NCBI GenBank assembly: GCA_020846135.1
Contig: JADLEK010000014.1
Location: forward strand, 17,719 to 49,718
Direction of reading: 5' to 3'
From: Gammaproteobacteria bacterium
GTDB lineage: Bacteria; Pseudomonadota; Gammaproteobacteria; Competibacterales; Competibacteraceae
Length of the DNA stretch: 32,000 nt
Each line of letters begins with the position of its first letter. Positions within the stretch are counted from its first letter, which is position 1. The notes beneath the pieces were generated by a model that saw only the letters and a program-made list of their open reading frames with translations, was not told the origin of the DNA and ran no database searches. Of the stretch, positions 3,162 through 28,570 are shown one piece after another. The position numbers and the translations under genes were made by a program.

Positions 3162-3757
3162 GGCGCTTTCTCCTCGCGGTTGATGGGAGCCGAGGGATGT
3201 TCCGGATGCAGGACTTCGATCGCCTCAACCGTTTCCACGGACTCAACCGCTTCAATGGCCTCGCGGGCCTCGTCAGCCAGTCGTAACCCTTCCTGGCGGC
3301 CATGCACGGTATGCCAGGCGACTTGCAACAGGCGCAGCAGGGCCAGCGCCAGGCCAACCGGTAACATGATGAACGGAACCCAGCGCGGAATCGGCAGATC
3401 TTGAGCTTCGATGCCAATCGAGTAGAGCTTGTGGACATAGCCGGTAGCGCCCACCAGCAGAATGATGCAATAGGCACAGCAGCACAGCACGGCGATCAGC
3501 CCGACCGCGCGGCGCAAGGGGTAGGCGAACTGACGCACCACCACATCGATGCCAATGTGTGCGCCAACCTTGATGCCATAAGACACGCCAAACAGCACCA
3601 GCCAGGCGAACAGATAGGTGGTCAATTCCAGCGCCCAGCCAAAACCCGCGCCAAAAAAATAGCGGGCGACGACCTGGCTAAAAGTGATCAGGGTCATCAA
3701 TCCCAGCAGCAGGGCAATGAAGCCCTCCTCCAGATGATGCGCAATACGGATTAACAT
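3158..3757 (-). CDS. dctQ: TRAP transporter small permease subunit
   Basis: Four-TM small protein located between dctP and dctM. I prefer the ATG at 3757 (MLIRIAHHLEEG), which is preceded by GGAGAG, over the track start at 3793. It has an acidic C-terminal tail (EAIEAVESVETVEAIEV). Confidence 0.85.
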   Translation of the reverse strand: MLIRIAHHLEEGFIALLLGLMTLITFSQVVARYFFGAGFGWALELTTYLFAWLVLFGVSYGIKVGAHIGIDVVVRQFAYPLRRAVGLIAVLCCCAYCIILLVGATGYVHKLYSIGIEAQDLPIPRWVPFIMLPVGLALALLRLLQVAWHTVHGRQEGLRLADEAREAIEAVESVETVEAIEVLHPEHPSAPINREEKAP

Positions 3758-3835
3758 GCGGAACTCTCCGAACGGAAGCGCGAGAATAACCACCCCATGC
3801 GAACATGAGGCGGTCCGATCAGTCAGGAAGAGGCG

Positions 3836-4912
<1,077 letters not shown>

Positions 4913-4976
4913 CTAACCATCAAAGATAGAAGAGAACAGCGCGAATGTATGTGCAAGACCTACCGCTGATTTTCCG

Positions 4977-5046
4977 GTCATCCCGGGGCAACTGGGTATC
5001 CAGTCGGTTTAGCAGATCACTGGATTCCCGCATACGCGGGAATGAC
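4977..5046. repeat. REP/MITE-like palindromic element (the 'LDSR.RGNDE / VIPA.AGI' type intergenic repeat)
   Basis: The arms are imperfectly inverted (GTCATCCCGG...GGTATCCAGT // CACTGGATTC...CGGGAATGAC). A perfect inner hairpin pairs ATTCCCGC with GCGGGAAT around the loop atac (5024-5043). It is non-coding and lies upstream of dctP. Confidence 0.6.
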
Positions 5047-5059
5047 GAAAATATAAAAT

Positions 5060-5096
5060 CCTGAATTTATTGGCGAATCCCGATCCCGCGGTGTAG
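5060..5096. repeat. 37-bp direct repeat, left copy (non-coding duplicate of the yadH 3' end)
   Basis: CCTGAATTTATTGGCGAATCCCGATCCCGCGGTGTAG is identical at 37/37 positions, in the same orientation, to 13568-13604. Confidence 0.95.
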
Positions 5097-5230
5097 GGGT
5101 CTTGGAATAACGACTCTGGAGACTTGTGCTTAGCCAAGCGGCCGGTGAGCAAACCCGGCGATCGCGATGCGATGACCGGATTCCGGATTCTGCAGGAAGA
5201 ATGAGCTTGATTGACGTGCGCAGCTCGGGG

Positions 5231-6040
5231 TCAGGGATCGTAGCGACCCCGGCAGGCGTTCAACAGAATGGTCAGGACCGCCAGATTGCCTTGGATACTG
5301 CTGATCTTGGTGGGGACTTGGCCGGTAGCGGGGTAGCGACGAGTGGTGGGCAATTCGAGACAGCGATAGCCCAGTTTTGGCGCTCGGTAGGACAGATAGG
5401 CCAGCAGTTCGTAAGTCAAGAAGATGTCCCTGAACGGGGCGACTTTAGGATCGAACAGCAGTTTGCGGCTATACGCTCTGAATCCCTGGGTGGTGTCGGT
5501 CCAGTGAAACCCGGAACAAAAGCTCAGCAATGGCGCATGGACCCAACGAATAGCAAATTCGCGAAATTTCGGCGTGTTTTCGCCAACCCCGCCGGGGATA
5601 TAGCGTGAGGCTTGGACGAAATCCGCGCCGTTTTGCAGGGCGTTGATAAATCGGGGGATGGCGGCGGGATCGTCCTTGTTGTTGCCGTCAATGGTGACAA
5701 TGCCTGCATAGCCCTGTCCAAGGGCGAAGGCATAGGCGCAACGAAGTTGGGCGCTCAGCTTGCCGGGTCCGGTTTTGACCAACAGACCGCGTACACCCTG
5801 AGCTTGAAGTGCAACTGTGTTCAGCGAACCGTCGGTGCTGCCGCCGTCCACAATCAAAATATCCGCCAGATTCTGAATTCCAAGAGTCGCCATTCGGTCG
5901 AGCAGCTTTCCAATCCGCTCGCCTTCGTTAATGACCGGAATGACAATGCACCACGGCTGACCTTGACCTAGCCATAAACGGGTTTCAAAGGCGGGCACTT
6001 GCCAAGTGGCGCGGATTTCCGGGGTTATCTCAGCGTTCAT
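5231..6040 (-). CDS. Family 2 glycosyltransferase, soluble DPM1-like
   Basis: GT2 hallmarks are present: CIVIPVINEGERI, ILIVDGGSTDGS and VTIDGNNKDDPAAIP. There is no C-terminal TM helix. The ATG at 6040 (MNAEITPE) is preferred over the track start at 6079. Confidence 0.8.
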   Translation of the reverse strand: MNAEITPEIRATWQVPAFETRLWLGQGQPWCIVIPVINEGERIGKLLDRMATLGIQNLADILIVDGGSTDGSLNTVALQAQGVRGLLVKTGPGKLSAQLRCAYAFALGQGYAGIVTIDGNNKDDPAAIPRFINALQNGADFVQASRYIPGGVGENTPKFREFAIRWVHAPLLSFCSGFHWTDTTQGFRAYSRKLLFDPKVAPFRDIFLTYELLAYLSYRAPKLGYRCLELPTTRRYPATGQVPTKISSIQGNLAVLTILLNACRGRYDP

Positions 6041-6103
6041 CGTTTTAATCCATATGGATACACAAATAAATTCAACCAAAAAATGGTATAGAAGCCGTAT
6101 CGC

Positions 6104-7712
6104 TCATTTGATATTCGCTACTGATATATTCTGAAATGAATCAGTATTGGGGTCATAAACAATTGCTCCTGCATATTCATATACATTGGATATTAGAAAC
6201 GTGCTTTTTACATTCAGCAATACTCCAGCGCACGCTTTCCTACCAACAACCAAAGATTTTAATTGGTCTGCGTTCTTGATTCCTTCAAAAACGCCTCGAT
6301 TAAGAGAAAGATTAACCCATCCTCGCACGGATGAATTCAAAGCATAGAGTACACAGGGTTCAGAGTATGAAGGAAGCTGATCGAGGAGTAACTTATTATT
6401 TTTTAAAGCCACACTAACGTCTATTTCTCTTGCTCGTACTTGAAAAATAACCAAGTTTGATATTAACCCAATTATTAGCAAAGAAGTCAGTAAAATGCGG
6501 ATTTTGATCTTGGCAATATGAATGCTTAGCGCAATCAGGAGCATCATTGGAACAATCGCTTTGAGTCTATCAAAACTATAGCTATATGCATGATTCATAA
6601 GCAGAAAATTTTCTAATAGAGGAGTAGATGATGCAATTAGCATAAGAACTATTACTCTTTTATTAATTATAGCATTACGATAACGCCAGATTATATACGT
6701 CGAAATAGTTGCAACTAAAGGAAGAATCCCATAAGACATGATGTGTCCATATCCTAAGTGAAATGGAGTAGAACGTAGGCCACTACGAGCAAAAAATCGG
6801 CGAGATAAAGCATAAATAGTATTTTCTGCACCAGCGACCCAGATAAAGTGAAGTAAAAACAATATAATTGCGATAACCGATGAAAAAATAATACCAAATG
6901 TAAGCCAATACAGTTTGTTATTTTTATTTTTGCGAGCCAAGTAAAAAATAATCCCAGCATTAGTCACAGCCGTTAAATAGCCAGTCCATTCTGTCATTGC
7001 ACCTAAAAAAGTTGCCCCTATCAATATTAAAGCAGTTGTTGTGACTGGACTGGACTGGACTGGAACCATAATAGCCGATTAACTTAAATAGCGCTATAAG
7101 CTGAGTTAACCAAAAGATTTGAAACAAAGAGTGGTGCCAATAAATTACTCCATGAGAGTAAAGTGCTTCATTAGAAAATATGTAAAATAAGGTAAGACTT
7201 ACAACTGCTACAGCACGGCTCACTGAAGATAATCCGAAATTTGTTAAGAATACACTCACCACCCATGCAAAAAGAAAAGTTGCTATCAAATGAATGAGCA
7301 TATTAAAAAATGCCAAGTTTTCTATCGTCAAATCATAACCAGTAGCCTCAAAATATAGATAAGGAATGAAAAAACCCAATGGAGAAAAAGAGGTATAATA
7401 GTAGTTACCATAGCTATCCGGTACTGTCGCGCCCCACGGGATGTTTTTATCCTCTGGATTGCCTAAACTTACAATGGGTAAAAATTTGTGAACACCGAAA
7501 GGAGTCGATTGAAGTGCTTTAATTGTGAGAAGAACGTGGTAACTAGCATCTATGTTATCGATAACATATCGATTACTATCATGATGGGTAGTTCGCAAAA
7601 AATATGAGAGCAAGAATAACGATAAAATACCAACAAAGATAAAAGTCAAAAGGAGAGAAGAAAAACTACGATATTGCGAACCGCCATTAGATACGCTCAA
7701 ATCGTGATTCAT
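6104..7712 (-). pseudogene. Polytopic membrane protein with GT-C-like architecture, split into two frames at a pentanucleotide repeat (candidate phase-variable gene, OFF state)
   Basis: The upstream fragment is 7712..6960 (ATG at 7712, RBS AAGGAA, MNHDLSVSNGG...). The downstream fragment is 7069..6104 in the +1 frame. Both are rich in hydrophobic helices and end with a C-terminal soluble domain of about 110 aa. The span is 1609 nt, so adding 5 nt gives one 537-codon ORF. GC is about 33%. Confidence 0.7.
7043..7064 (-). repeat. Pentanucleotide tandem repeat: (GACTG)x4+GA on the + strand, (TCCAG)x4+TC on the coding strand
   Basis: Read directly from gtGACTGGACTGGACTGGACTGGAacc. It sits exactly where the two reading frames of the split membrane-protein gene overlap. 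Confidence 0.95.
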
Positions 7713-7726
7713 TTGATATTCCTTTT

Positions 7727-8080
7727 TTACGCACGCACAGTAATCAAAACCACGCCGACCATCACCAGTACAATGCCCGCGATGGTCGTCCAGTGAAAAG
7801 GCTCCCGGAATAGCACCAGAGATAACACAGCGACGGTTGCCACCGCTCCCGATGTCAATATTGGATGCGCCACGTTCAAGGGCAGCACCGACAACGCGGC
7901 GGCATACAGTAGGAATGCGCCGCCGTACAACGCCAGTCCCAGCCAGAACGGCCAATTGCTCAAGGCGCCAATAGGATCGCTGAGCGAAGGAAACTGACGC
8001 GGCGGCAGCATCGCGAATTTGACCAGCACACTGGCCGATGCGTTGGCGGCAATCCCGGAGAGCAGAATCAACCATTTCAT
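7727..8080 (-). CDS. Small four-TM EamA/SMR-like protein, ArnE/ArnF-type (putative undecaprenyl-phosphate-sugar flippase subunit)
   Basis: 117 aa with four hydrophobic helices and an LPLNVAHPIL motif, as in ArnE/F-type proteins. Its start overlaps the upstream gene's stop by ATGA. Confidence 0.7.
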   Translation of the reverse strand: MKWLILLSGIAANASASVLVKFAMLPPRQFPSLSDPIGALSNWPFWLGLALYGGAFLLYAAALSVLPLNVAHPILTSGAVATVAVLSLVLFREPFHWTTIAGIVLVMVGVVLITVRA

Positions 8081-8919
8081 ACCGATGCTCCGTTTCCAGC
8101 CCAGTCGTCCCGGTAATAACGAATCGCGACTTGCAAGGCGCGCTCGACAGCTTGCAGCGGCGGCTCTTGTTTGGCAGCCAGCATTTCAATCGTCACGATC
8201 TGATCCGGTAGTGTGGCGTTCAAAGCTCGGCTCGCCGCGTGATGATCGCAACCGCCATCGCCCAGAGTTGCCAAATCCGGTTCGCTGGCATGGACATGAC
8301 CGATCAGAGTGGAATAGCTGGCTATGACTGCTTCGGGCGCCTCGTCGTTGAGGGCCATTGCCCCGGTGTCGAGTTGCATCCGAATCGCCGGATGATCAAC
8401 CTGCTTCACTATCGCCGCTGTTTCGGCGCTGTTGGTCATGAAATTGGCGCCGTAGCAGGGCGGATTGGGTTCCAGGCAGACCCGCACTCCGTGAACGCTG
8501 GCGCTATTGCCCAAGCGCCGGAAGAACTCCACAGCCACGGTTTCGGTTTGAGCATCGCTGAGGCTGCCGCGATCCCGATTTTTCGGGGAGCCGAACACCA
8601 GTCGGGTCGCGCCCAGACCGCCGCCAATCCGGCACACCGCGTCCAGATGCGCCAACATGGCGGTTTGTATCTCAGGGCTGGCGAACAGGTTCAGGCCAGT
8701 GGTTCCAAACAGCAACGCCTGCATTCCGGTGATTTCGATGCCGCGCTTGCGCCACCAATCGCTTACCCGGCTCATATCGTCCGGGGTCGCTTGCCGGGGA
8801 TCGGGGAAATACTTGCCGGGGGCAATGTCTATGGCGTCTACGTTGTATTGATGCAGCAGATCCGCCACCGCTTCGTCATCGCGCACGTCCCAAGCGATAT
8901 TGGAGATGGCGATTCTCAT
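8077..8919 (-). CDS. Sugar phosphate isomerase/epimerase, xylose-isomerase-like TIM barrel
   Basis: From the ATG at 8919 (MRIAISNIAWD...). It shows the pattern typical of the AP-endonuclease-2/xylose-isomerase TIM family (LVFGSPKNR, VCLEPNP, HVHASE). It has ATGA overlaps at both ends. The track start at 9018 is an extension. Confidence 0.7.
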   Translation of the reverse strand: MRIAISNIAWDVRDDEAVADLLHQYNVDAIDIAPGKYFPDPRQATPDDMSRVSDWWRKRGIEITGMQALLFGTTGLNLFASPEIQTAMLAHLDAVCRIGGGLGATRLVFGSPKNRDRGSLSDAQTETVAVEFFRRLGNSASVHGVRVCLEPNPPCYGANFMTNSAETAAIVKQVDHPAIRMQLDTGAMALNDEAPEAVIASYSTLIGHVHASEPDLATLGDGGCDHHAASRALNATLPDQIVTIEMLAAKQEPPLQAVERALQVAIRYYRDDWAGNGASV

Positions 8920-9719
8920 TGGCCCATTCCCGCGTTTTTCAGAGTGACCGGTTCCGATTGCGCATAGGCCCGAATCGCCAGTAGCGTTTCCCGCTTGCTG
9001 TACTGATATGCGCCGCAACCGCCGAATAGCGCGGCGTGTTTGGATTGGAAATCGTAGCAGGCCGGTGGATTGGCGAGGGTGTTTTGAAACTCCCGGCCAA
9101 ATCCATGTTGGGCGACTTCGGCGACGCTAATCGGCTCGGCGGTTAAGTGGACAAATGAAAGTTGCGCCTGCAATGCGGTTTGAATGTCGTACCAGAGATT
9201 GACCATTGGATAGAACTGGAACACGCCACGGCTCTCAATGGCGTCCAGATTATTCTGATTCAGGAAATCGAAAATAACGTTCTTGCGTAAACCAGGACCA
9301 ACCAGTCCCGGCAGCCGCACGATCAAATGCCGGGGAAAGTGGGACTCGACAAAGGTTTCCAAATACCGGCGATGCAGGCCATAAGGTTGCAAGCCGGTTT
9401 CATCAACCGCTGTGTCCTCGGTGACGCCAAATGGAATCTTGAATACGTCTACGGTGCTGATGAGGATAAATTCTTGGGTTTTTATTTCCCTAAGATTATT
9501 TTTTAACTCATTTATGTTATTTAGATCAGCATCAGGATTTTTGTTTGCAATCCATTTCTGGGCTGGAGCAGCGCAGCAAACTGTGATCGGGAATACTTTA
9601 CCAAATCCGTCTGAGAAATTTTCTCGACCTAACAGTGTTGATGAATGGCATTGTCTAGCTATAGAGCTTCCAACAAACCCTTTTGCCCCAATGATTAACA
9701 TATTGTCATCTAAGTTCAT
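8916..9719 (-). CDS. NAD(P)-dependent epimerase/dehydratase-family SDR (atypical)
   Basis: From the ATG at 9719 (MNLDDNMLIIGAKGFVGSS), which carries the Rossmann GxxGxxG. LISTVDVF and PYGLHRRYLE align with the S...YxxxK signature, but R replaces K. The 5' third of the gene is AT-rich and the remainder is GC-rich. Confidence 0.7.
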   Translation of the reverse strand: MNLDDNMLIIGAKGFVGSSIARQCHSSTLLGRENFSDGFGKVFPITVCCAAPAQKWIANKNPDADLNNINELKNNLREIKTQEFILISTVDVFKIPFGVTEDTAVDETGLQPYGLHRRYLETFVESHFPRHLIVRLPGLVGPGLRKNVIFDFLNQNNLDAIESRGVFQFYPMVNLWYDIQTALQAQLSFVHLTAEPISVAEVAQHGFGREFQNTLANPPACYDFQSKHAALFGGCGAYQYSKRETLLAIRAYAQSEPVTLKNAGMGQ

Positions 9720-17041: not shown

Positions 17042-18091
17042 TCACGGTTGTTGGGGCAACAGGTAAGGTTCAAATTCCGGGGTATAGCGTTCCTGAAAAG
17101 CGCCATCAGCACCAATCAGGATAAAAAACACGGCCAGATGATGCTCGGTCGCCAGACGGAAACCCAATTCAGGCCCCGCCGCCATCAGCGCGGTCGCGGT
17201 CGCATCGGCTTGACTGGAAAAATCGCTGATCATCGTTACTGAAGCTAGGGTCTGCGGAACCGGTCGACCCGTCTGTGGATTGATAATATGGGAATAGCGC
17301 CGACCGTCCTGTTCGAAGAAATTGCGATAGTCGCCCGACGTGGAGATGCTGTGATCGCCCAGCCGCACCAACCGCTCCACCGCCCGCTGACCGGGAGCGG
17401 GCTGCTCAATCGCAATCGTCCAGGGCTGACCCTTGCCGTTGCGGCCCCTGGCTTGCACTTCACCGCCGATGGACACTAGATAGTCATTGATGCCGGCGGA
17501 ATTAACCAGCGCCGCCAGTTGATCCACGCCATAGCCTTTCGCAATCGCCGACAGATCCACATAGAGATCGGGCCGATCTTTTTTCAACGCTGGCGGCTCG
17601 TCGCGGACTTGTAGCCGCCAGTAGCCAACCCGCTCGCGGGCCTGGGCAATGGCGGCTTCGTCCGGTGCTTGATCGCGGCGCGGCTCCGGCCCGAATCCCC
17701 ACAGGTTGACCAGCGGCCCCACCGTAATATCGAACGCGCCGCCGCTCAGTTCGCTGATTTGCAGGCCCTCGGAGACCACTTGGCCCAGCTCCGGCGATAC
17801 CGTAATCCAGTCGGTGCTGGAGTTCTGATTGAAGCGCGACAGTTCCGAGTTCGGGTCGTAAGTGGACATCACTTTGTTAATGCCGGCCAGCAGCGCCTCG
17901 ACCCGGGTTTTGAGATCGGTGGAGACCATCTGGCCCGGAGCGGGCACCAGCTTGAGATCATAGCTGGTGCCCATGGTTGACCCGGAGATGTGAACTGTCG
18001 GATCGGGAGCTGGCGGTTCACAACCGCTCAGGATTAGCGCAGCCAGCAATAGCATTCCGCCTCGAAGCAGGATCGCCGCTGGGCCAGCCAT
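17042..18091 (-). CDS. apbE: FAD:protein FMN transferase (ApbE family lipoprotein)
   Basis: From the ATG at 18091. It has a lipobox (LAALILSGC) and then GSTMGTSYDLKLV, which is typical of ApbE. AIAKGYGVD and SISTSGDYRNFF are also present. The track start at 18238 is an extension. Confidence 0.85.
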   Translation of the reverse strand: MAGPAAILLRGGMLLLAALILSGCEPPAPDPTVHISGSTMGTSYDLKLVPAPGQMVSTDLKTRVEALLAGINKVMSTYDPNSELSRFNQNSSTDWITVSPELGQVVSEGLQISELSGGAFDITVGPLVNLWGFGPEPRRDQAPDEAAIAQARERVGYWRLQVRDEPPALKKDRPDLYVDLSAIAKGYGVDQLAALVNSAGINDYLVSIGGEVQARGRNGKGQPWTIAIEQPAPGQRAVERLVRLGDHSISTSGDYRNFFEQDGRRYSHIINPQTGRPVPQTLASVTMISDFSSQADATATALMAAGPELGFRLATEHHLAVFFILIGADGAFQERYTPEFEPYLLPQQP

Positions 18092-27187: not shown

Positions 27188-28570
27188 TCAGGGTTTTCCG
27201 GATGCGGGCTGATTTTTCATCCGCGAAGGATCGAAGAAGCCGGCAGCGCTGATTTCGATAGCGGCAATCGCAAAGTTAAGGTTCTGCCCGACCTTCAGAC
27301 CCATGGTGGCGATGCCGATCACGGTGCCGTCGTGCAAAATTACCGGGCCGCCGCTGTTGCCGGGGCTGATCGGCGCGGAAATCTGGATATAACGCACCCC
27401 GTCGATCTCGCGCAACCCGCTGATCACGCCAGTGGAAAAGGTGCCTTCCAGACCGTAGGGATTGCCGATCACGAACACATCCCGGCCAATCAGATCCTGG
27501 CTGTAGGTGGCGTTGAGGATAAAGCGGTCGGCGCCGTTCAGCGAGGTGGATAATAAGGCCAGATCGGGCGACTTGCCGCGTCGGCGAATTTTGGCGACCG
27601 ATTCGCGCCCGCCGCATTTCACCGCCAGGTTATCGGCCTTGTCGATCACATGATCATTGGTAATCACCAGCCCATCGCTCGAAACCAGCAGGCCACTGCC
27701 CAGATTGTCGGTTTTGCCATTGCGGGTCGTGACGATCAGGCAGGTGATCGGCAGGCTGCGCCGGTAAATGCGTTGCCCCAGATTGTCGTTGCCGGCAGGC
27801 GCGGGCTGGGGAGGGGACGATGCCGGTGGCGGAGTAGCCACGGGTTTGCCCAGACTTGCCCCCGGTTGCAGTGCGTTGGGCAAAGAGTTCACGGCAGGCT
27901 GCGGGGGGGGCGCGGCTGTCGGAACGGGAGGAATACCGGGGTTGGCCAGAGAGGTCGGCGGAGTTTGTGGTTGCACGGCTTGCAGAGCCTGCAATGCGCC
28001 GATTCGGACCGCGTCAGCGGGATCGGTGGTCGCCAGTTGTCGCAGTTGTTCCGTCAGCGTCGCCGGGTCCGGGGCGAACTGGTAGGCGTTGGCGAAGGCC
28101 CCGGCGGCGCGCTGGGTATCGCCAGTCTGACCATAGACCTGACCCAGGGTGAACCAGGTGGCCGACTGGCCGGGTGCCAGCGACAGCGCATAGACCGCCA
28201 GGCGCTCGGCCTCTTTGAGCCGGCGCAGCAGCAGGTAGGTCAGGCTGAGTTGATTGGCGATCTCCGGATCGGCGGGATCGGCGATGAATGCCTGACGGAA
28301 CGCGGCCAGGGCTTCCTTGAACCGGTTGCCAGCCAGATGATCGAGGCCCTGCTGGCGAAACGGTCGGGCCTGGGTGGCATCGCCGGGTTCCGGGCGGCGC
28401 TGGTTGTCCAGTTGCTCGCGGAAGGTCAGTACGCCAGCCTGATCCTTGGTGGCGGCGGCGGCGATCATCTGCTGGACGTAATAGTCAATGGTGTCGTACT
28501 GGCCGGCCCACACCGCCGTTGCGCTCGCCAGCGTCAGCAGTACTGCCGCCAGTGTCCGTCGGAGATTCAT
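27188..28570 (-). CDS. Secreted TPR-domain / trypsin-like (S1, DegP-type without PDZ) serine protease fusion
   Basis: The signal peptide is MNLRRTLAAVLLTLASATAVWA. It is followed by about 180 aa of TPR-like repeats and then a Pro-rich linker of about 70 aa. The protease domain has the His (TNDHV), Asp (SPDLALL) and Ser (GNSGGP) triad. Confidence 0.8.
   Translation of the reverse strand: MNLRRTLAAVLLTLASATAVWAGQYDTIDYYVQQMIAAAATKDQAGVLTFREQLDNQRRPEPGDATQARPFRQQGLDHLAGNRFKEALAAFRQAFIADPADPEIANQLSLTYLLLRRLKEAERLAVYALSLAPGQSATWFTLGQVYGQTGDTQRAAGAFANAYQFAPDPATLTEQLRQLATTDPADAVRIGALQALQAVQPQTPPTSLANPGIPPVPTAAPPPQPAVNSLPNALQPGASLGKPVATPPPASSPPQPAPAGNDNLGQRIYRRSLPITCLIVTTRNGKTDNLGSGLLVSSDGLVITNDHVIDKADNLAVKCGGRESVAKIRRRGKSPDLALLSTSLNGADRFILNATYSQDLIGRDVFVIGNPYGLEGTFSTGVISGLREIDGVRYIQISAPISPGNSGGPVILHDGTVIGIATMGLKVGQNLNFAIAAIEISAAGFFDPSRMKNQPASGKP

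Follow-up and report, generated by a model that had tools for sequence, protein, structure and literature searches.

The gene studied here lies in a 32,000-nucleotide (nt) stretch of contig JADLEK010000014.1 (assembly GCA_020846135.1; Gammaproteobacteria, Competibacteraceae), positions 17,719 to 49,718 of the forward strand, which was analysed as a whole and is called the window. On its minus strand, positions 7712 to 6104 hold a complete low-G+C gene for a membrane glycosyltransferase of the GT-C fold, frameshifted in the window at a perfect pentanucleotide repeat of four TCCAG units. Alleles with five units exist in nature and encode an uninterrupted protein of 537 amino acids (aa). The ON/OFF polymorphism at this repeat is real, and comparison of the alleles makes a phase-variable locus with a low unit number credible; we consider it fairly probable that the locus is a slipped-strand ON/OFF switch in a surface-glycan gene.

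Direct reading of the minus strand from 7064 to 7043 gave (TCCAG)x4+TC, flanked by GGCTATTATGGT on the left and by ACAACAAC on the right. Tandem Repeats Finder (TRF) delimited the same segment (7043-7064, period 5, 4.4 copies, 100% matches), which was the sole microsatellite with at least four copies in the window. When the window was simulated 2000 times with a second-order Markov model, the longest period-5 run measured 18 nt, and 20000 simulations of the gene alone gave at most 21 nt; runs of 22 nt or more were thus never reached. The tract is perfect and its origin by chance is excluded. The G+C content is 35-38% at 6001-7500, versus about 56-62% in the flanks.

The repeat coincides with a change of reading frame. 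ORF A (6960..7712, 250 aa) runs from the ATG at 7712-7710, with an AAGGAA ribosome-binding site (7719..7724) placed 6 nt 5' of it, to the stop codon at 6962-6960. It contains the authentic N-terminal 216 residues of the enzyme, including the conserved D/E55 (NxDASYH), then the codons of the tract and a 27-residue out-of-frame tail, its C-terminus being ...GYYGSSPVQSS followed by HNNCFNIDRGNFFRCNDRMDWLFNGCD. ORF B (6104..7069, 321 aa) begins with MVPVQSSPVTTTALILIG at ATG 7069 and contains the authentic C-terminal 60% of the enzyme, that is, transmembrane helices and a C-terminal beta-rich domain. On reading the sequence upstream of ATG 7069, no purine-rich Shine-Dalgarno sequence was found. 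The span from 7712 to 6104 measures 1609 nt, which is 1 mod 3, and the unit length is not a multiple of three, the in-frame unit numbers being 2, 5 or 8. When the gene was rebuilt in silico with one to seven units, a single ORF was obtained only at two units (532 aa) and at five units (537 aa). The re-read sequence and TRF agree with the preliminary description as regards the tract, the ORF coordinates, the frame change and the lack of a Shine-Dalgarno sequence at 7069. That description also predicted a 537-codon ORF from either the gain of one unit or the loss of two; the gain does produce it, whereas the loss gives 532 codons.

The two ORFs are annotated at NCBI, in a 4-unit metagenome-assembled genome (MAG), as the hypothetical proteins MCC6134287.1 and MCC6134286.1. 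The 5-unit fusion had 138 homologues, of which the 120 listed were 435-671 aa long, with identities of 28-42% and a coverage that was mostly 80-98% of the query, and it could be aligned end to end with 33 intact homologues. In the resulting 34-sequence alignment, invariant residues are found both before the tract (P79, Y106, S108, F109, Y191, W192) and after it (W244, R307, E369, N370, H376, D383, K386, R465, G466). In addition, when 1.84 billion cluster representatives were searched with a profile, 1319 members were obtained, and nearly all of the best 150 of these 1319 matches were one stretch across almost the whole profile. No split homologues were present among those listed by this profile search. 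The end-to-end alignment that had been proposed as a check was thus obtained, and the possibility raised with it, that homologues exist as two separate genes, is answered by the single chains among the best 150 matches. As judged from these alignments, 7712-6104 is one gene and not two, and the two hypothetical proteins are halves of it.

The DNA of 47 related loci was fetched and inspected for natural alleles. The 90%-identity cluster that contains ORF A and ORF B also includes members of 537 aa and 658 aa. One of them, P0124, is MCC8992553.1 from a Candidatus Contendobacter sp. MAG and matches letter for letter the 537-aa protein built in silico with five units. Five units were found in six contigs, namely L001/L037 (GCA_020890935.1), L002 (ERZ15186002), L017/L036 and L018 (ERR14888851/49), L019 (SRR13994828) and L020 (SRR13094909). 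The window shares its four units with 27 distinct contigs, which come from ENA, JGI and Logan assemblies; samples with this state include ERZ25038374, ERZ15184762, ERZ27239181, SRR26424594, ERR12510824 and JGI 3300056850/3300056999. Four units turned up repeatedly in assemblies made independently of each other (SPAdes, MEGAHIT, Logan and JGI), the one from ERZ25038374 at 44x coverage, and the frameshift is consequently real and not the assembly error that had initially been envisaged. The comparison of repeat numbers among relatives, also proposed at that time, has therefore revealed a true polymorphism. No 4-unit contig of good quality showed a second lesion in the gene, although this is a weak argument because the lineage is so clonal. 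Scanning of the metagenome contigs with a 22-mer (left flank plus two units) gave a single hit, L021, which has other flanks, is unrelated and matches by chance. Genome-contig scans with the protein and with a 27-mer gave no match, and the species representative in that collection evidently does not carry the gene.

A scaffold of 896 nt (L048, ERZ28614981), corresponding to about 6650-7205 of the window, contains a tract of 4-unit length that is interrupted, TCCAGx3+TCCTG, with four A-to-T substitutions within the 45 nt past it; at its end, 340 nt are purine-rich, without ORFs and of unrelated sequence. It may be a decayed copy, but as this scaffold is of low coverage and possibly chimeric, it was not taken as evidence of gene decay. 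A diversity-generating retroelement was considered as the source of its A-specific changes and found no support.

The background in which both alleles occur is highly clonal. Three contigs (L031, L032 and L034) show no difference from the window over 11.5-17 kb, and 100% identity over 11-17 kb was seen in contigs from unrelated sewage and wastewater metagenomes (HEND19, MUNK22 and DTU_2022 prefixes; JGI, Logan). Over 12,428 nt, the 5-unit contig L002 differs from the window by no substitution and by two indels. One of these is a TCCAG unit, and the other concerns a poly-C tract (12494-12487) that is C8 in the window and C7 in L002. L001 shows the same two indels and one single-nucleotide polymorphism (SNP). 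The TCCAG tract is the longest microsatellite of the compared region and the poly-C tract is its longest homopolymer. Since the indels are restricted to the two longest repeats, repeat length appears to change at least as frequently as substitutions occur, summed over more than 12 kb. At the level of sequence, this pattern of differences is the signature of slipped-strand mutation.

The poly-C tract (12487..12494, minus strand) is located at about codon 330 of a glycosyltransferase family 2 (GT2) gene at 12365..13483. Its length is C8 in the window and in every long 4-unit contig; the 5-unit contigs and ten others have C7, and sister lineages have C9, C10 or C11 without interruption. This variation puts the C-terminal tail of the GT2 in all three frames, with products of 341-344 or 370-372 aa, and decides whether the gene ends 20 nt before the start codon of the following DAO-family gene or overlaps it by 67 nt. 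The ten further C7 contigs were reached via cluster member P0134, and all of them but the MAG contig end before the TCCAG tract. Four independent C7 assemblies (L038-L041) all break at 12266-12268 of the window, inside the DAO gene; this shared break suggests an assembly-graph fork, with co-existing strains that diverge there. The other G8 homopolymer of the window, at 27903-27910, is outside every fetched locus.

The 537-aa protein had no match in Pfam or NCBIfam at E<=0.01, none in a tblastn search of deposited phage genomes, and none of significance in a profile search of PDB sequences (best E about 1). In PHROGs it gave one marginal match, phrog_9201 (E=0.0067), a 55-position family of unknown function. 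However, its fold could be predicted with high scores. The AlphaFold2 model built from the 34-sequence alignment reached a predicted local distance difference test (pLDDT) score of 91.9 and a predicted TM-score (pTM) of 0.92. Foldseek matched it with AglB (7e9s, 2e-5), yeast and human STT3, DPY19, ArnT (5f15), AftA/AftB, PimE and ALG3. The query-normalised TM-scores were 0.44-0.57 at E<=0.001, with 0.51 for ArnT. On the basis of this model, we are confident that the protein has a GT-C fold, with a polytopic membrane domain and an extracytoplasmic C-terminal domain, and the label of GT-C-like protein given to it beforehand is borne out. By sequence it belongs to a separate uncurated GT-C family, which comprises at least 1319 clusters at 50% identity and some members of which are named 'YfhO family' or 'RgtA/B/C/D-like' by their sources.

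GT-C enzymes have a conserved acidic residue in the first external loop. Directly past the first transmembrane helix, at residues 53-59, the protein bears the motif N-x-[DE]-A-[STP]-[YFW]-H, whose acidic position is D or E in 33 of the 33 sequences that cover it (P0107, also among the 34 aligned, begins past the motif); this residue fits the one in the external loop of GT-C enzymes, and a catalytic role may be proposed for it. The tract itself codes for residues 217-226, in a short loop, residues 218-225, between helices 193-217 and 226-242 where the block-mean pLDDT falls to 77-81. Homologues are gap-rich and variable in length at this loop, from which it follows that insertions of SSPVQ should be tolerated there.

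The switched gene belongs to a series of genes, from 13483 to 5231, that are all on the minus strand and adjacent or overlapping. The series starts with the above-mentioned GT2 (12365..13483), which has weak ArnC/GtrB-like matches and is 372 aa long in the window and 343 aa in the C7 allele. It is followed by the FAD-dependent oxidoreductase of the DAO family (11304..12431) and by a second low-G+C membrane protein of 536-539 aa with a GT-C fold (9716..11335). The model of the latter has a pLDDT of 74 and its top Foldseek matches were PglB, DPY19, STT3, ALG12 and AftA; only seven homologues were found. The two low-G+C membrane proteins were compared as possible paralogues and showed no detectable similarity (BLASTP E=0.42). 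Then come a 267-aa protein with a weak NAD-dependent epimerase/dehydratase match (8916..9719), a 280-aa xylose-isomerase-like TIM-barrel protein of the sugar isomerase/epimerase type (8077..8919) and a 117-aa SMR/EamA-type membrane protein (7727..8080). This small protein matched EamA, SMR, TMEM234 and, weakly, ArnE/ArnF-like models, had no match with GtrA (PF04138) in the Pfam and NCBIfam searches, and is a candidate flippase for a lipid-linked sugar. Directly downstream of the switched gene, a 269-aa GtrB-like GT2 (5231..6040) matches PF00535 and phrog_841, 'GtrB-like O-antigen conversion' (6.7e-16), and is a candidate polyprenyl-phosphate sugar synthase. By analogy, GT2, small flippase-like protein and GT-C would form a Gtr/Arn-like module. 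Just upstream of this glycosylation cluster, at about 14435-15880 according to the gene tables of L031 and L037, an IS1595-family transposase gene and a PIN-domain gene are found between the genes for an ABC ATPase and an ABC-2 permease.

A related arrangement is present on the Cereibacter sphaeroides plasmid CP031752.1 (L065, 23003-31604). There, a GT-C relative with 29% identity is accompanied by a sugar-phosphate isomerase/epimerase, an FAD-binding oxidoreductase, a GtrA family protein and a GT2, and the gene partnership thus recurs in a distant organism. This neighbourhood suggests that the lipid-linked sugar may undergo oxidation, reduction or epimerisation ahead of its transfer. Another relative, of 527 aa and 33% identity, is encoded at 3529-5112 of a phage contig (L049, IMGVR_UViG_3300031084_000257), between the Rz lysis gene and the gene for a lambda-J-like tail-tip fibre. 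The slot between lysis and tail-fibre genes is a classic site of lysogenic-conversion genes.

Comparison with other strains indicated that the gene is mobile. In five loci of a sister lineage (L056-L060), the same operon lacks the 537-aa gene, with only 8 nt from the stop codon of the SMR-type gene to the start of the 269-aa GT2 gene. In these loci, the slot of the other GT-C protein is occupied by a different membrane protein of 596 aa, and a HicB gene is present too. From these replacements, both low-G+C GT-C genes behave as exchangeable cassettes. The low G+C content and the sister strains that lack the gene bear out the earlier proposal of a horizontally acquired cassette. The gene was also found in two sister-type backgrounds, whose recombination junctions are not the same. 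L026 has four units, a divergence of about 15% in its AP_endonuc and SMR-type genes, and a junction within the final 20 nt of the latter; in L017/L036, with five units, the segment that resembles the main lineage starts upstream of the AP_endonuc gene. In L026 the switched gene is 100% identical to that of the window, and in L036 there is one SNP between the two. A near-identical gene in differing backgrounds implies recent movement, and either allele may have travelled along. A perfect 13-nt direct repeat, GAATATCAAATGA, brackets the ORF exactly: the 5' copy (7709..7721, minus strand) includes the start codon and the 3' copy (6104..6116, minus strand) includes the TGA stop codon, 1605 nt apart. 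No further copies of this repeat were detected in the window, even with two mismatches, and the pair may mark an insertion or exchange of the cassette.

The following mechanism is proposed for this cluster, which would serve for periplasmic glycan modification in a wastewater Competibacteraceae bacterium (Candidatus Contendobacter). Slipped-strand mispairing at replication would add or remove whole 5-nt units. With five units, the full 537-aa enzyme would be made (ON); with four, translation would end after a 250-aa fragment without helices 5-13 and the C-terminal domain (OFF). In the OFF state, the approximately 860 untranslated nt beyond the stop codon would probably also lower the expression of the downstream GtrB-like GT2. 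The analogous Gtr, Arn, CsbB/YfhO and Rgt systems suggest three steps: attachment of a sugar to polyprenyl phosphate by the GT2, flipping of the lipid-linked sugar by the small protein, and its transfer to an envelope glycan by the GT-C enzyme. The two states would interconvert far above the substitution rate, being heritable and potentially reversible, and selection would set their mix, most plausibly through phages or grazers that recognise the glycan. Slippage itself, the downstream polarity, the acceptor glycan, the rate and reversibility of switching and the selective agent are steps that we infer. The presence of an in-frame 5-unit tract points to earlier gains of units from a shorter in-frame tract.

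In the preliminary description, the tract was regarded as a slipped-strand switch with stochastic control of the gene. The polymorphism that this requires is real, but for the stochastic part the observed pattern would also be expected from a single historical mutation. One unit could have been lost once in a dispensable gene, the null allele, a young pseudogene, spreading afterwards clonally or by recombination. We regard this one-off inactivation as rather unlikely but far from negligible, since several observations agree with it and weigh against a switch. Only 4- and 5-unit alleles were found, and an exact look-up in 15 billion proteins detected none of the products of 0-, 1-, 2-, 3-, 6-, 7- or 8-unit alleles. 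The OFF allele is about ten times commoner than the ON allele: OFF products were present in 63 (P0121) and 31 (P0126) collection blocks, and ON products in 2+2+2 contigs. In eight of eight long contigs of the main lineage, five units go with C7 and four with C8, a perfect linkage that two fixed sub-lineages would yield as well. From its absence in L056-L060, the gene is a dispensable accessory insert, and as it is 100% identical across three backgrounds, recombination could have carried either allele. Finally, the tract is short and mid-gene, at codon 216, many classical cases being near the 5' end. Its 4-5 units are above the cut-off of three or more units used for phase-variable simple sequence repeats (SSRs) in H. 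influenzae (PMC2651432) and at or below that of five or more units set for pentanucleotides in PhasomeIt (PMC5953494). A single loss is harder to reconcile with ON and OFF contigs that differ only at the two longest repeats, as this marks hypermutable sites, which would also revert in very large populations. It also fits poorly with the persistence of the ON allele, which several unrelated samples and also a second genomic background (L036) still carry, and, as a weak point given the clonality of the lineage, with the intactness of the remaining gene in about 27 OFF contigs.

The other explanations deny that the 4-unit allele is silent or that it exists. It would still be expressed if ribosomes made a programmed +1 frameshift at the tract, or if a split enzyme were formed by the 250-aa fragment and an internally started product of 297-321 aa. 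For the split enzyme there are two possible starts in ORF B, the in-frame ATG 7069, which is kept, and a second ATG (MTEW, about 6997) that comes after AGGTG and is the choice of the gene callers on contigs in 31 blocks. However, AGGTG is only 2 nt from this ATG, ATG 7069 has no Shine-Dalgarno sequence, the tract has no known +1 frameshift signal and the profile search listed single-chain homologues. Moreover, the natural in-frame allele shows that correction takes place at the DNA level, and we judge expression despite the frameshift to be very improbable. Even less credible is an artefact of sequencing or assembly with a true sequence that is in frame everywhere. Some source genomes are indeed long-read MAGs, which are prone to indel errors, but four units recur in 27 or more contigs whose samples and assemblers are independent, with short-read assemblies among them and one at 44x, and five units in six contigs; besides, a pentanucleotide tract of 20-25 nt is not a homopolymer and is far shorter than an Illumina read.

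Slipped-strand switching of the kind favoured here is well known from Neisseria opa (CTCTT)n and pgl/lgt, from the tetranucleotides of H. influenzae lic2A, lgtC and lex2, and from the poly-G glycosyltransferase genes of C. jejuni. As in these bacteria, surface structures and glycosyltransferases would be turned ON and OFF at translation, and several genes of a glycan cluster may be switchable, in this case by the poly-C tract of the GT2. Unlike here, they have longer tracts, of 5-30 units or of G9 and above, that are usually located close to the 5' end, and their enzymes are mostly soluble GT-A or GT-B proteins instead of GT-C. Short pentanucleotide tracts are nevertheless reported as switches: in H. 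influenzae, hsdM (GACGA)4 changes from four to three units at a high rate, and the lipopolysaccharide flippase gene of the hmg locus has a (TCAGC)2-3 repeat (PMC2651432). These two cases share with the present locus a 5-nt repeat of few units (2-4 in their case) within the ORF, a frame shift by one unit, ON and OFF alleles among strains, and targets with surface-glycan or phage-defence functions (PMC2651432). They differ in that H. influenzae is a host-adapted pathogen in which the hsdM rate was measured, whereas the present locus is a mid-gene tract in a GT-C gene of an uncultured wastewater bacterium.

The function would resemble, by analogy, that of GtrC-type serotype-converting GT-C enzymes, while the mechanism would follow the classical design of contingency loci. 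Salmonella and Shigella gtrABC clusters likewise combine a horizontally acquired, low-G+C, type-specific GT-C enzyme (GtrC) with a GtrB-like GT2 and a small flippase, and their expression is phase-variable and bears on phage resistance (PMC2909390, PMC3688519); the window GT-C protein has, for its part, the phage-borne relative in L049. However, phase variation of gtr is epigenetic, through Dam and OxyR at the promoter (PMC2909390), and does not depend on an SSR. In addition, the small protein of the window is of the SMR/EamA type and not GtrA (PF04138), and its cluster adds an FAD oxidoreductase, a protein resembling short-chain dehydrogenases/reductases and a TIM-barrel isomerase. The association of GT2, small flippase and GT-C is also that of ArnC/ArnE-ArnF/ArnT, CsbB/GtcA/YfhO and RgtE/RgtA-D, with ArnT among the structural matches (5f15, TM-score 0.51). 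The window GT-C protein differs from all of them in having neither a Pfam or NCBIfam match to these families nor a sequence match to solved structures.

SSR contingency loci are textbook biology in Haemophilus, Neisseria, Campylobacter and Helicobacter. No paper that connects phase variation with Competibacteraceae (Competibacter or Contendobacter) was retrieved by a full-text literature search. The pentanucleotide switch, the poly-C tract that ranges from C7 to C11 over three frames and the exchangeable low-G+C GT-C cassettes may tentatively be viewed as a multi-switch glycan phasome in a free-living activated-sludge bacterium. If such a phasome existed, it would provide combinatorial diversity of surface glycans in a strain for which the sewage metagenomes of several independent projects otherwise give identical sequences; this diversity would presumably be a form of bet-hedging against phages. 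It would also extend the biology of contingency loci from host-adapted pathogens to engineered and environmental microbiomes. Public wastewater metagenomes contain the ON and OFF alleles in a strain whose sequence does not otherwise vary over 12-17 kb, and the locus is a directly testable case of whether the pressure of phages or grazers in wastewater plants is met by mutational glycan switching. The analysis also draws attention to the uncurated GT-C family (at least 1319 clusters), which has one member on a phage contig and whose neighbourhood of GT2, FAD oxidoreductase, TIM-barrel isomerase and flippase-type protein recurs on the Cereibacter plasmid.

Another length difference was noted elsewhere in the window. 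In a sewage contig (L006, ERZ28577646), the gene encoding a DctP solute-binding protein has a 27-nt in-frame deletion with respect to positions 4236-4262 of the window, with GCTGG at both edges.

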